Source: a virus (lineage: Duplodnaviria > Heunggongvirae > Uroviricota > Caudoviricetes). From it: DNA of 36,937 nucleotides. Positions within the stretch are counted from its first letter, which is position 1, and each line of letters starts with the position of its first letter. Positions 2,834 to 32,194 of this stretch are shown piece by piece. The stretch lies in the IMG/VR virus record IMGVR_UViG_2698536485_000021. One strand, given 5' to 3'. A model generated the notes under the pieces. The model ran no database searches and was not told the origin of the DNA. It saw only the letters and a program-made list of their open reading frames with translations. A program made the translations under genes and the position numbers.

Positions 2834-3121
2834 TCAATTTGAAACTATTGTACTTCTTATACAAGCAACCACTTCAATATCAGAAAATGCACATTCAAAG
2901 CTATTCTCTGTAGTTGTAATTTTAATCATACCTTTTGGAAGCTTTGTGATTTTTCGAATGGAATAGGTTCCGTCGATGTTGATTAACCAGTGTCCATCAA
3001 GTACTTCAGAAAATTTTTGATCACAAATGTATGTGACAAGCCCATCCTGAATAACAATTGGTGATGAAAGATTTGCAGGAAGAAATGATGAATCGAATAC
3101 ATATGAACCATCTTCAATCAT
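2834..3121 (-). CDS. 95-codon ORF: either the C-terminal domain of an interrupted 186 CI-like repressor or a separate small gene co-transcribed with the T5orf172 gene
   Basis: Same frame as the HTH ORF at 3191-3430, separated only by one TAA (3191-3193) and 23 open codons; weak RBS of its own; AT-rich like the cargo gene. Confidence 0.45.
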   Translation of the reverse strand: MIEDGSYVFDSSFLPANLSSPIVIQDGLVTYICDQKFSEVLDGHWLINIDGTYSIRKITKLPKGMIKITTTENSFECAFSDIEVVACIRSTIVSN

Positions 3122-3190
3122 TTTGCCTGCGGTAAGGCGAAACTTGGGAAGCTCTTCTGTGGCTACTGTCAGCGAGCTTTGCTTAAGTCC

Positions 3191-3430
3191 TTACCCGGTG
3201 GTTAACCATTTCAGTGAGGTTCCTGTTTCAAGAGCACATTGGATTATCCAGTCTGCAGGAAACGTATCCCGCAAATACCTGTTCGCCAGAGTGCTTTTTG
3301 ATACTTCCAAGTGATCAGCTAAAGCCTGTCGTGTCGTAAAGCCATAAGCTTCGACTAATCGCTCAATCGCAGCCTTACCACCTTTATTGGGATTTATTTT
3401 GATCTCACTTGGGTACTTTGATGTTGACAT
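3191..3430 (-). CDS. Immunity repressor, HTH DNA-binding N-terminal domain (186 CI-like); ends at an in-frame TAA
   Basis: 79-aa ORF with HTH-like segment (TTRQALADHLEVSKSTLANRYL); divergent from the apl/cox-like gene across a 95-bp control region, as in P2/186 switches. Confidence 0.7.
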   Translation of the reverse strand: MSTSKYPSEIKINPNKGGKAAIERLVEAYGFTTRQALADHLEVSKSTLANRYLRDTFPADWIIQCALETGTSLKWLTTG

Positions 3431-3525
3431 ATCTCTTTTGCGATCCTGGTATCAGTTTTGTCCCCATTTGGGTACTTGTCACGATTACTACAGGCTCACC
3501 ACAAGCCAATAGGAGATGTTGCATC
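3431..3525. promoter_or_regulatory. Lysis-lysogeny switch region with divergent/face-to-face early promoters and operators (not resolved to base)
   Basis: Short intergenic region between the divergent repressor and apl/cox-like genes; AGGAG RBS at 3511-3515. Confidence 0.4.
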
Positions 3526-3747
3526 ATGACCCCTAACATTTCAATAACTCTGAATACGCCACATGTCACAATTGAGCGTTATAGCGAACTTACTGGTCTT
3601 TCAATCGACACAATTAACGATATGCTGGCTGACGGTCGCATCCCTCGGCATCGCCTTCGGAAAGACAAGAAAAGAGAAAAGGTGATGATCAACCTTGCTG
3701 CTCTTACCGTTGATGCACTTACTGATTGCAATGTTGTATTCAACTAG
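3526..3747 (+). CDS. Cox/Apl-like excisionase and transcriptional regulator
   Basis: 73-aa ORF from ATG 3526 with AGGAG RBS; small basic HTH protein ([23 protein letters not shown]) first in the rightward early operon. Confidence 0.65.
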
Positions 3748-3779
3748 TTCCATTTTGGGATGCATCAGGGGTGTCGACC

Positions 3780-28633: not shown

Positions 28634-28687
28634 TGTATCTGAACGGCGCGGGATTCCGCGCCAGAACCCAATTTACAGGACAACAAA

Positions 28688-28990
28688 ATGAGCGATAAGC
28701 AGACTGAAAAGACCATTCAACTGGATACCCCTATCAAGCGCGGTAAAACAGAAATTACCGAAATTGTGCTGCGTAAACCGCAGTCCGGTGCGCTGCGCGG
28801 TACACGCCTGCAGGCCATTATGGATATGGATGTGAACGCGATGATGACCGTGATCCCCCGCATCTCCAGTCCGGCACTGACTGCACAGGAAATTGCAGAG
28901 ATGGACCCGGCAGATCTCACTGCCATGTCGGTTGAGGTTGTCACTTTTTTGTTGAAGAAGTCGGTGCTTGCCGGTTTACCGACAGCCTGA
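28688..28990 (+). CDS. E: Tail assembly chaperone E
   Basis: 100 aa; contains slippery TTTTTTG at 28945-28951. Confidence 0.8.
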   Translation: MSDKQTEKTIQLDTPIKRGKTEITEIVLRKPQSGALRGTRLQAIMDMDVNAMMTVIPRISSPALTAQEIAEMDPADLTAMSVEVVTFLLKKSVLAGLPTA

Positions 28991-29124
28991 CGGTTGACGA
29001 TCTGGTGGCTGATATCGCCACCATCTTTCACTGGCCGCCATCCGTTACTGACGTTATGCCGCTGACCGAAGTGCTGGAATGGCGGTATAAAGCGATTCAG
29101 AGAAGCGGGGCCAACGATGAGTGA
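28688..29124 (+). CDS. E+E' tail chaperone made by programmed -1 frameshift at TTTTTTG (28945-28951); shifted frame runs to TGA at 29122-29124
   Basis: The -1 frame is open from the slippery heptamer to 29124 and overlaps the T start, the canonical P2 E/E' arrangement. Confidence 0.7.
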
Positions 29125-32100
29125 TAATAACCTGCGCCTGCAGGTCATTCTTAATACGGTTGACAAACTCACCCGCCCATTCCGTGCTGCACAGGCCAGT
29201 TCGAAAGAGCTGGCTGGCGCAATTCAGAATACCCGAAACAGCCTCAAAGAACTGAATAAGCAGGCTGGCAGAATTGATGAATTTCGCTAGACGCGCTCGC
29301 AACTAGCCATAACAGCCAATAACCTGAACGCAGCCCGCGAAGAGGCGGCAAAACTCGCCACACAATTTGCTGCCACTAACAGGCCAACCGCCGCGCAGGC
29401 AAAGTTATTCAGTCAGGCCAAAACACGAGTACAGGAACTTCAGCAGACCTATAACGGCTTGTTGGGGGCGGTCCAGAGACAACGTCAGGTACTTAAAGAA
29501 TCAGGGATTGATACCAGACAACTCAGTAGTGCCCAGCGAGAACTTAAGAAAAATGCTGAAGAAACAAGGCAGGCACTGGAGGGCCAGCAAAAAGCACTTA
29601 AACGTCTGGGTGAACAACAGGCACGGATGAACGCTGCCAGAGAACAATACTCAAGACGGCTTGAAGTGCGCGATCGCATCGCAGGAGCCGGAGCCACTAC
29701 CACGGCTGCAGGGCTGGCAATGGGTGCGCCAGTGATGGCGGCAGTAAAAAGCTATACCAGCATGGAAGATGCCATGAAAGGTGTGGCAAAGCAGGTCAAT
29801 GGTCTGCGTGACGATAATGGCAACCGCACCGCACGTTTTTATGAAATGCAGGATGCCATCAAGGCTGCCAGCGAACAGTTGCCGATGGAAAACGGTGCGG
29901 TGGACTTCGCTGCACTGGTTGAAGGTGGTGCGCGCATGAACGTCGCAAACCCTGACGACAGCTGGGAAGACCAGAAACGTGACCTGCTGGCCTTCGCCAG
30001 TACGGCAGCAAAGGCGGCAACAGCCTTTGAGCTGCCAGCGGATGAACTGTCAGAAAGTCTGGGGAAAATCGCCCAGCTCTACAAAATACCTACCCGCAAT
30101 ATTGAACAGCTCGGCGATGCGCTGAACTATCTGGATGATAACGCCATGTCGAAAGGGGCGGACATCATTGATGTGATGCAACGTCTGGGCGGTGTGGCTG
30201 ACCGTCTGGATTATCGTAAAGCGGCGGCACTGGGTTCCACCTTTCTGACACTGGGCGCTGCGCCGGAGGTTGCAGCCAGTGCAGCAAACGCGATGGTGCG
30301 TGAATTATCCATTGCCACCATGCAAAGCAAGAGTTTCTTTGAAGGGATGAATCTGCTGAAACTCAATCCTGAAGTGATTGAAAAGCAGATGACGAAGGAT
30401 GCGATGGGAACTATCCAGCGTGTGCTGGAGAAGGTGAACGCACTGCCGCAGGACAAGCGTCTGTCTGCCATGACCATGTTGTTTGGTAAAGAGTTTGGCG
30501 ATGACGCGGCGAAACTGGCAAACAACCTGCCGGAACTGCAGCGCCAGCTAAAACTGACAGCGGGCAATGATGCGCTCGGCTCCATGCAGAAAGAATCCGA
30601 CATCAACAAAGACTCACTTTCTGCTCAGTGGTTGCTGGTCAAAACCGGAGCGCAGAACACCTTCAGCAGCCTGGGCGAAACGCTGCGCCAGCCGCTGATG
30701 GATATTCTGTACACGGTGAAAAGCATCACGGGGGCGTTGCGCCGCTGGGTGGAAGCTAACCCGGAACTGACAGGCACACTGATGAAAGTAGCGGCTGTTG
30801 TGGCTGCGGTTACCGTAGGCCTCGGCACCTTAGCGGTGGCGCTGGCTGCAGTTCTGGGGCCGCTGGCAGTGATCCGTCTGGGATTTTCTGTGCTGGGCAT
30901 CAAAACGTTACCTTCCGTTACGGCAGCAGTAACACGAACCAGCAGCGCGTTGTCCTGGCTGGCAGCCGCACCACTGGCAGTGCTGCGACGCGGGCTTGCT
31001 TCATCGGGCAACGCAGCGGGTTTACTTACTGCTCCGTTGTCGTCTTTGCGTCGCACGGCATCACTGACGGGAAATGTCCTGAAAACTGTAGCTGGTGCGC
31101 CGGTTGCACTGTTCCGGTCTGGATTATCAGGTTTACGTGCTGTTGCTGTGATGTTTATGAATCCACTGGCAGCACTACGCGGCGGGCTGGCTGCCGCAGG
31201 CGCGGTGCTGCGAGTGCTGGCATCCGGCCCGCTGGCGATGCTGCGCGTTGCTCTGTATGCCGTATCTGGTCTGTTAGGTGCTCTGCTTAGTCCGATAGGT
31301 CTTGTGGTTACTGCACTGGCGGGTGTGGCGTTGGTTGTCTGGAAATACTGGCAACCCATCACTGCATTTCTCGGTGGCGTGGTGGAAGGATTCAAAGCGG
31401 CGGCAGGTCCCATCAGTGCCGCATTCGAACCACTTAAGCCCGTGTTCCAGTGGATTGGCGACAAAGTGCAGGCGCTGTGGGGCTGGTTTACTGATCTGCT
31501 GACGCCCGTTAAGTCGAACTCTGCCGAACTGCAGAGCGCAGCGGCAATGGGGCGACGATTCGGGGAGGCACTGGCGGAAGGGCTGAATATGGTCATGCAT
31601 CCGCTGGACTCCCTGAAATCCGGCGTTTCCTGGTTGCTGGATAAACTCGGCATTGTCAGTAAAGAGGCTGCAAAGGCGAAACTGCCGGAAAGCGTGACGC
31701 GTCAGCAACCTGCGACGGTGAATGCAGACGGTAAAGTGATGATGCCATCGGGTGGTTTTCCGTCATGGAGATATGGCTTTGCGGGGATGTATGACAGCGG
31801 CGGCTATATTCCGCGCGGGCAGTTTGGCATCGTCGGTGAAAACGGGCCGGAAATTGTTAACGGCCCGGCAAACGTGACCAGCCGGAGAAATACAGCTGCA
31901 CTGGCTGCCATTGTTGCCGGAATGATGGGCGTTGCTGCCGCGCCTGCAGAGCTTCCACCGTTGCATCCTTTGGCGCTTCCCGCGAAAGGTGGTGAAGCGA
32001 TGATGAGTCGCGCAGCCACTGTGCCGCCCGTTCAACGGATTGAGGCACCGACGCAGATCATCATCCAGACGCAGCCAGGACAAAGTGCTCAGGATATTGC

Positions 32101-32194
32101 GCGGGAGGTGGCACGCCAGCTTGATGAACGTGAACGCAGGCTGAAGGCAAAAGCCAGGAGTAACTACAGCGATCAGGGGGGATACGACGCATGA
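29117..32194 (+). CDS. T: Tail tape-measure protein T, single in-frame amber codon at 29288-29290
   Basis: ATG 29117 after E; same frame continues from 29291 to 32194 with no other stop; long helical A/L/G-rich protein typical of tape measures. Confidence 0.8.

Follow-up and report, generated by a model that had tools for sequence, protein, structure and literature searches.

Clone-fixed point lesions and a candidate lytic-promoter mutation in a retron Ec67-type prophage of Shiga-toxin Escherichia coli

How can a prophage whose repressor is broken, but whose replication and lysis genes are intact, be carried harmlessly by its host? The question is posed by IMG/VR record IMGVR_UViG_2698536485_000021, a stretch of 36,937 nucleotides (nt), here called the window, which holds a P2/186-like (Peduoviridae) prophage as judged from its open reading frame (ORF) layout and megablast comparisons with phage records. 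Two nonsense codons and one frameshift interrupt the genes for the CI repressor, the tape-measure protein and the reverse transcriptase (RT) of retron Ec67 (Eco2). A candidate answer is an A->G change at position 3448, in the -10 element of the predicted early lytic promoter pR, which we infer to be a fourth lesion and which an earlier note on this DNA, drawn from the letters alone, had overlooked. With its A replicase, holin, endolysin and spanins intact, a prophage that has no functional CI would be expected to kill the cell that carries it, so that the change at 3448 is needed to explain carriage. We consider it probable that this is a clonally inherited Ec67-type prophage decaying by point mutation, in which the pR change came first and, by locking the prophage in, removed the need for CI. 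The four sites are as follows.

2834..3430, minus strand: CI repressor pseudogene, 198 codons, Q80 CAA->TAA (plus-strand positions 3191-3193)
3424..3452, plus strand: predicted early lytic promoter pR, -35 TTGACA at 3424-3429, 17-nt spacer, -10 TGGTAT at 3447-3452
10354..12110, plus strand: retron Ec67 (Eco2) RT-Toprim gene, -1 frameshift, A6->A5 at 11774-11778
29117..32194, plus strand: tape-measure pseudogene, 1025 codons, K58 AAG->TAG at 29288-29290

For comparison with intact alleles, the nearest relatives in the phage collection are Klebsiella phage KP12 and Escherichia phage Cartapus. KP12 CI has Q at codon 80 and is otherwise identical to the CI of the window, and the Cartapus tape-measure gene has K at codon 58 of an uninterrupted ORF; these comparisons confirm the repressor ochre and the tape-measure amber that the earlier note had placed at the same codons. 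The intact CI allele combines the Pfam domains Phage_CI_repr, a helix-turn-helix (HTH) domain matched over residues 19-82, and Phage_CI_C, has a structural match in PDB 2FJR/2FKD, and aligns with coliphage 186 CI over both domains (33% identity, E 1e-34). In the window, translation ends at codon 80, before Phage_CI_C, and the product is a 79-amino acid (aa), HTH-only fragment (3194-3430) from which the C-terminal oligomerisation domain is gone. Supply of CI in trans by a second homoimmune prophage is unlikely, as the immunity region is single-copy in the lineage genomes at megablast sensitivity.

The retron gene has lost one nucleotide of an A run: the intact gene of E. coli Ec1117 (585 aa) reads GTAAAAAATTG where the window reads GTAAAAATTG. 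The frameshift noted earlier is therefore real, but the interval then given for it, 11775-11856, is the out-of-frame tail and not the lesion itself. Two ORFs result, of 500 aa (10354-11856) and 87 aa (11847-12110). The first, here RT-500, joins native residues 1-476 to a 24-aa out-of-frame tail ending at 11856 and is without native residues 477-585 of the RT-Toprim fusion; counted from 11889 to 12110, the orphan C-terminal ORF comprises 73 aa. RT-500 scores 627 bits against NF038237 (retron_Ec67_fus; cut-off 450), and the RT matches PDB 9LM3/9I2F, 'Retron Ec67 protein', at E ~1e-217. The truncated protein has YADD at 199-202 and keeps the Toprim acidic residues E373/D377/D459/D461, the counterparts of E374/D378/D460/D462 in Eco2; both motifs are offset by one from their published positions (PMC12916289). 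A complete Toprim is not found on a single polypeptide, since the match to the 572-position model breaks off at position 465 and resumes, for positions 506-572, on the separate 73-aa ORF. PADLOC classes the intact allele as RT-Toprim_I-C, and restoring the A in the window gives an RT that is one residue away from an intact allele present on 510 contigs. Programmed frameshifting or transcriptional slippage at the A5 run was rejected, both for the shortness of the run and because relatives have an in-frame A6. Upstream of the shared lesion, the lineage contigs L174 and L179 have another RT frameshift, A8->A7 at window positions 10501-10508.

Upstream of the RT gene lies the predicted RNA component of the retron.

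10188..10318, plus strand: retron noncoding RNA (ncRNA) region (msr-msd), perfect 13-nt inverted repeat at both ends

The repeat arms are GCACATGTAGGCA (10188-10200) and TGCCTACATGTGC (10306-10318), and the region ends 36 nt upstream of the RT start. An Rfam search of 9700-10400 gave no match to a retron ncRNA family; the predicted placement of msr-msd follows from the position upstream of RT and from an a1/a2 repeat of the kind typical of retrons. Inactivation of Toprim in Eco2 abolishes defence and leaves multicopy single-stranded DNA (msDNA) synthesis and trimer formation in place (PMC12916289), and for this reason the retron of the window would likely make msDNA without providing defence.

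The lesions are real and they belong to a lineage. All three reading-frame lesions were found, by base-by-base comparison or by annotation, in four complete genomes: 13E0780 and 13E0725 from German cattle, OkiPb01680 from Japanese cattle, and 2014C-3061 from a human in the USA. The Prokaryotic Genome Annotation Pipeline (PGAP) reports an 'internal stop' in CI and tape measure in all four and splits the RT into 500-aa and 73-aa products in the first three, and 2014C-3061 gives a full-length, ungapped match to the frameshifted retron region. In RefSeq annotation, the CI and tape-measure genes already appear as pseudogenes and the RT as two ORFs. Two more OkiPb genomes match at ~100% identity, and a single-nucleotide polymorphism at 29490 that is private to the window marks it as a further isolate. 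The exact truncated proteins recur on public contigs, with RT-500 on 462 (plus 712 collection blocks), the 73-aa RT fragment on 682, a 57-aa tape-measure fragment on 656 and the 79-aa CI fragment on 51. Identical alleles in independent complete genomes and hundreds of contigs rule out assembly error, which the earlier note had offered as an alternative.

Outside the lineage the same sites are wild-type. In a panel of ~165 related loci from IMG/VR and E. coli genomes, counting only loci that cover a given lesion site, this holds for 10/10 relatives at the CI site, 2/2 at the RT site and 35/35 at the tape-measure site. Recoding would have kept the interruptions in relatives, and none of the three is present there. 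The lesions are thus fixed in the lineage and have no counterpart in any examined relative outside it, which is how the comparison with related prophages in other isolates, proposed in the earlier note, has come out. The host is a clonal, cattle-associated Shiga-toxin E. coli (STEC) lineage in which the prophage is passed on vertically. Of its members, 13E0725 is O182:H25 and 13E0780 is O156:H25; both are sequence type (ST) 300 and persistent cattle colonisers, and both were assembled from PacBio data only (PMC5427212). Over 32,160 nt, the 13E0780 prophage differs from the window by 6 mismatches and 1 indel (99.98% identity).

Does the number of lesions call for a special process? At 47 positions the window has a base that no panel relative shows, and at 43 of them the lineage genomes agree with it: 23 synonymous, 17 missense, 2 nonsense and 1 intergenic change. 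A simulation in which mutations of the same spectrum were scattered randomly over the covered prophage gave 1.97 expected nonsense changes against the 2 observed (P(>=2) = 0.59), by which nonsense enrichment was rejected, and 12.1 expected synonymous changes against 23 observed (P = 0.0003), an excess from which it follows that part of the private changes predate inactivation. If about half of them post-date it, our own arithmetic gives ~1 expected nonsense change and P(>=2) ~0.26. Two stops and one homopolymer frameshift require no special process. Within the tape-measure interval 29288-32089 lie 13 of the 43 substitutions, ~4 times the density elsewhere in a 3-kb gene, and many of them are synonymous; the density suggests recombination from an unsampled relative rather than relaxed constraint.

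Variation within the lineage shows that decay continues. Its ~18 nonsynonymous and ~7 synonymous variants stand in a near-neutral ratio, new frameshifts are seen in terL, RT and the portal gene, CI has a second stop, K96*, and the substitutions look unconstrained. In terL (13191-14957), a 1-nt insertion at 14264 frameshifts the large terminase in 13E0780 and in an unrelated draft (L181, GCA_024354375.1); it is found in neither the window nor 13E0725, and is sublineage-specific and no PacBio artefact. With lesions fixed in a clone, other genes intact, neutral-looking variation and further frameshifts, the earlier view of a recently inactivated cryptic prophage is supported, and the event is ordinary prophage decay. 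Another route to defectiveness is seen in E. coli UMNF18 (L008, 15918-16416): its prophage at the same chromosomal site has an intact CI and ancestral pR, but a single deletion has removed everything from the capsid gene through tail gene U.

The one intergenic change private to the lineage is A->G at 3448. It sits in the 95-nt spacer between cI and apl and turns an ancestral TTGACA-17-TAGTAT into TTGACA-17-TGGTAT, with loss of the A in the second position of the -10 hexamer, the most conserved base of the sigma70 -10 element. A consensus scan calls pR in UMNF18, with its intact CI, as the only match in 300 nt, and calls none in the window. As a control, the scan recovered exactly the 186 pR known from experimental annotation, which likewise abuts the cI start, and a similar promoter was found in the heteroimmune Ec1117 prophage. 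The predicted pR is the positional counterpart of 186 pR. Position 3448 is A in 12/12 relatives, and the derived allele is present in 15/15 lineage loci that cover both sites, all with the CI stop. The derived 86-nt sequence is matched exactly by 6 of the 167 complete E. coli genomes that have this immunity region, and all six belong to the lineage.

A 31-nt direct repeat (3388-3418 and 3447-3477; 74% identity, 59-nt spacing) brackets the predicted pR, and both copies end in TTGGGTACTT and may be CI operators. This 10-mer occurs twice around pR, with no enrichment over chance, and contig L174 has a 1-nt deletion at 3472, within the second repeat copy.

By analogy with 186, we infer that A->G at 3448 is a promoter-down mutation, after which the prophage was locked in and could do without CI. 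The genes on which this account turns flank the spacer.

1..1053, minus strand: integrase, intact, 350 aa, left prophage end (ORF list and PGAP annotation of the identical prophage)
1137..2813, minus strand: PD-Lambda-1 defence cargo, intact, 558 aa, DUF4041 plus T5orf172/MUG113 nuclease (Pfam; PADLOC E 2e-119)
3526..8595, plus strand: early rightward operon, comprising apl/cox-like, cII, fil, DUF5347, DUF2732, traR-like, dam methylase and A genes, all intact
6181..8595, plus strand: replication endonuclease A, intact

The first event would have been the loss of the conserved A in the -10 hexamer. Crippling of pR would silence the apl-cII-fil-A operon, so that excision, replication and killing would all be lost; a prophage locked in by this means would no longer need CI, and CI, the tape measure and the retron nuclease could then drift to pseudogenes at the neutral rate. 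In 186, the strong pR suppresses convergent pL by transcriptional interference (PMC3675496). If the prophage behaves likewise, silencing of pR would relieve interference on the leftward promoter, and output of the CI fragment, the PD-Lambda-1 gene (named 'SNIPE associated' in newer annotation) and int, all transcribed from that promoter, would rise. The leftward (lysogenic) operon includes the PD-Lambda-1/SNIPE gene, which stands between cI and int and whose expression should follow the state of the pR/pL switch. A stronger form of the proposal makes the pR -10 mutation a domestication switch, which at once locked the prophage in, rendered CI dispensable and turned the leftward PD-Lambda-1/SNIPE operon on, with the other lesions as aftermath; we put this forward tentatively and think it rather unlikely. 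Were it true, the host lineage would have gained a permanent, induction-proof defence together with cargo. Whatever its history, the prophage does not have the makings of an inducible, particle-forming phage, with CI ending at Q80*, the tape measure at K58* and the predicted pR mutated in its -10 element.

Several points weigh against an origin in pR, and one of them concerns the late activator.

33864..34082, plus strand: ogr/Delta-like late activator, with its own sigma70-like promoter at 33799-33826, unchanged

The 186 counterpart of this promoter, pB, is CI-repressed, and if CI represses ogr in the present prophage as it does in 186, the late and lysis genes should be derepressed. The assignment of pR itself comes from a consensus scan and from positional analogy to 186, whose CI is only 33% identical. 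The derived sequence makes TGgTATCAG, a weak extended -10-like motif, and residual activity is possible. Finally, the intermediate genotype, pR mutant with intact CI, was not found, and the order of events comes from logic only. An exact-pattern scan of IMG/VR for intermediates with the derived pR allele gave 0 matches. The combination of RT frameshift and intact CI was sought through 24 RT-500 contigs: two representative loci had no called cI gene and, in alignment, the CI stop and derived pR, and the other 22 contigs were only grouped by similarity to one of them. As to a CI operator motif common to the pR region and the ogr promoter, just a 9-mer and a 7-mer are shared, which is unconvincing.

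The unchanged ogr promoter would do no harm if the 79-aa CI fragment were active, and this is the strength of a rival account in which the HTH-only fragment still represses the lytic promoters enough and the change at 3448 is a neutral passenger. The CI stop indeed follows nearly the whole HTH domain, and many assemblies still have the fragment annotated as a gene. We nevertheless judge this account unlikely. The C-terminal domain of 186 CI builds the dimer and the 14-mer wheel for cooperative repression (PDB 2FKD/2FJR; PMC3675496), and the whole of Phage_CI_C is absent from the fragment, while K96* and other changes pile up downstream of the first stop. A passenger would also have come to lie in pR by coincidence, and the chance that any of the 43 substitutions falls in the 12 hexamer positions is ~1.7% by our own calculation, which was made post hoc.

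That the lesions were selected, as adaptive inactivation or domestication rather than drift, strikes us as decidedly improbable. Such selection would keep PD-Lambda-1/SNIPE, the acyltransferase and dam while doing away both with the danger of induction and with a retron nuclease that might be toxic. It fits the observation that cargo genes are intact while lytic-cycle functions are struck, the wide spread of the lineage, and the rise in leftward-operon expression that the promoter change would bring by analogy with 186 (PMC3675496). The nonsense count, however, equals the neutral expectation, and against the ~1 expected if about half of the substitutions post-date inactivation, P(>=2) is ~0.26 by our own arithmetic; within the lineage, nonsynonymous changes strike PD-Lambda-1, acyltransferase and phage genes alike, and knockout of the tape measure has no obvious benefit once pR is dead. 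Least credible of all is a functional prophage, either because a nonsense-suppressing host reads through its stops or because its lesions are sequencing or assembly errors. The homopolymer context of the RT lesion and the PacBio-only origin of two reference genomes (PMC5427212) might encourage this idea, but the alleles are identical in complete genomes from three countries and in hundreds of NCBI, ENA and Logan contigs, and further frameshifts keep arising within the lineage. Suppression, also named as an alternative in the earlier note, is not needed as an explanation: a suppressor would have to read both UAA and UAG, and would repair neither the frameshift nor the promoter change; no tRNA gene, and hence no suppressor tRNA, is encoded in the window. 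Decay that probably began in pR is the reading that we retain.

How does this prophage compare with known elements? By sequence it is of the classical retron Ec67 type, because UniProt names the intact form of its CI 'Protein ORFi in retron Ec67'; the RT family match and a dam methylase within the element are further likenesses. The original Ec67 element has reportedly been described as ~34 kb in size, at ~19 min. In contrast to that element, the window has an RT-Toprim frameshifted after residue 476, nonsense codons in CI and tape measure, and a mutated predicted pR -10. With coliphage 186 (Eganvirus) it shares a two-domain CI, the leftward cI-int and rightward apl-cII-fil-...-A arrangement, a rightward promoter directly beside the cI start, and an ogr/B-type late activator with its own sigma70 promoter. 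Unlike 186, it has an immunity region that is not alignable at the DNA level, an intergenic region 34 nt shorter, a PD-Lambda-1 gene between cI and int, and, in place of a Tum-sized antirepressor, a 77-aa DinI-family gene. Cartapus (Elveevirus) is 97.5% identical in DNA over the tail module and has an intact tape measure, and KP12, whose CI is intact, aligns with 71% of 2600-12600 at 95.6% identity; both differ from the window in having no lesions and in their cargo, KP12 being without the Ec67 retron and Cartapus having an invertase. Like decaying cryptic enterobacterial prophages, the element shows clone-fixed inactivating point mutations, relaxed constraint and retained accessory genes, but it is at a very early stage, at which the first inactivating steps can still be read.

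The rest of the prophage is intact. Its DNA is 95-97% identical to Peduoviridae phages, and PGAP annotation and ORF inspection give the Peduoviridae gene order of int-cI, an early operon with the A replicase, the Q P O N M L head module, lysis, tail and baseplate, FI FII E E' T U D, and ogr. The remaining features are listed below.

within 12160..25242, no single strand: head module (portal, terminase, scaffold, capsid, head completion), all intact in the window
within 12160..25242, no single strand: holin, endolysin, LysA/B/C, tail, baseplate and fibre genes, all intact in the window
25423..26544, minus strand: Acyltransferase_3 family cargo (Acyl_transf_3), intact (Pfam)
34160..34173, plus strand: attR core AACAAAAAACCCAT, repeated beside rcdA at attL, with ybjL, ybjM and grxA downstream

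In 13E0780 the prophage is integrated between rcdA and ybjL. The first base of the window belongs to the integrase stop codon, attL lies ~90 nt outside the window start, adjoining rcdA, and the right end is host DNA (ybjL, ybjM, grxA) beyond ogr. In keeping with the earlier note, to which the other structural, lysis and replication genes had appeared intact, all 42 other annotated prophage genes are without internal stops (42/45 annotated genes intact); no deletions or insertion sequences were found in the window, and PGAP flags no further pseudogenes in the same prophage of 13E0725 or OkiPb01680. Further cargo consists of the dam methylase, the DinI-family gene and the Ec67-family retron. The accompanying idea that the prophage still supplies retron, acyltransferase and cargo functions stands in part: the acyltransferase and PD-Lambda-1/SNIPE genes are intact, but the only protein of the retron is frameshifted and without residues 477-585, and its contribution is doubtful because Toprim activity is required for Eco2/Ec67 defence (PMC12916289).

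A DUF8087 gene (9373-9708, minus strand) lies just upstream of the retron and occupies the same position in prophages with other cargo. In window segment 25243-26935, the acyltransferase_3 gene, on the opposite strand, stands where the related Ec1117 prophage has a recombinase and alternative tail-fibre segments, and at this place Cartapus has a DNA invertase directly upstream of the sheath gene. O-antigen modification is a possible function of the acyltransferase_3 product; of the two documented ST300 strains, one is of serotype O156 and the other of O182.

For annotation, these results mean that the Ec67-family retron is not to be listed among the functional defence systems of this STEC lineage, nor the prophage as inducible. 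More broadly, the locus offers an early snapshot of prophage domestication, in which ~34 kb are intact save for a handful of point lesions, and its hundreds of sequenced descendants allow the order and rate of decay to be followed.

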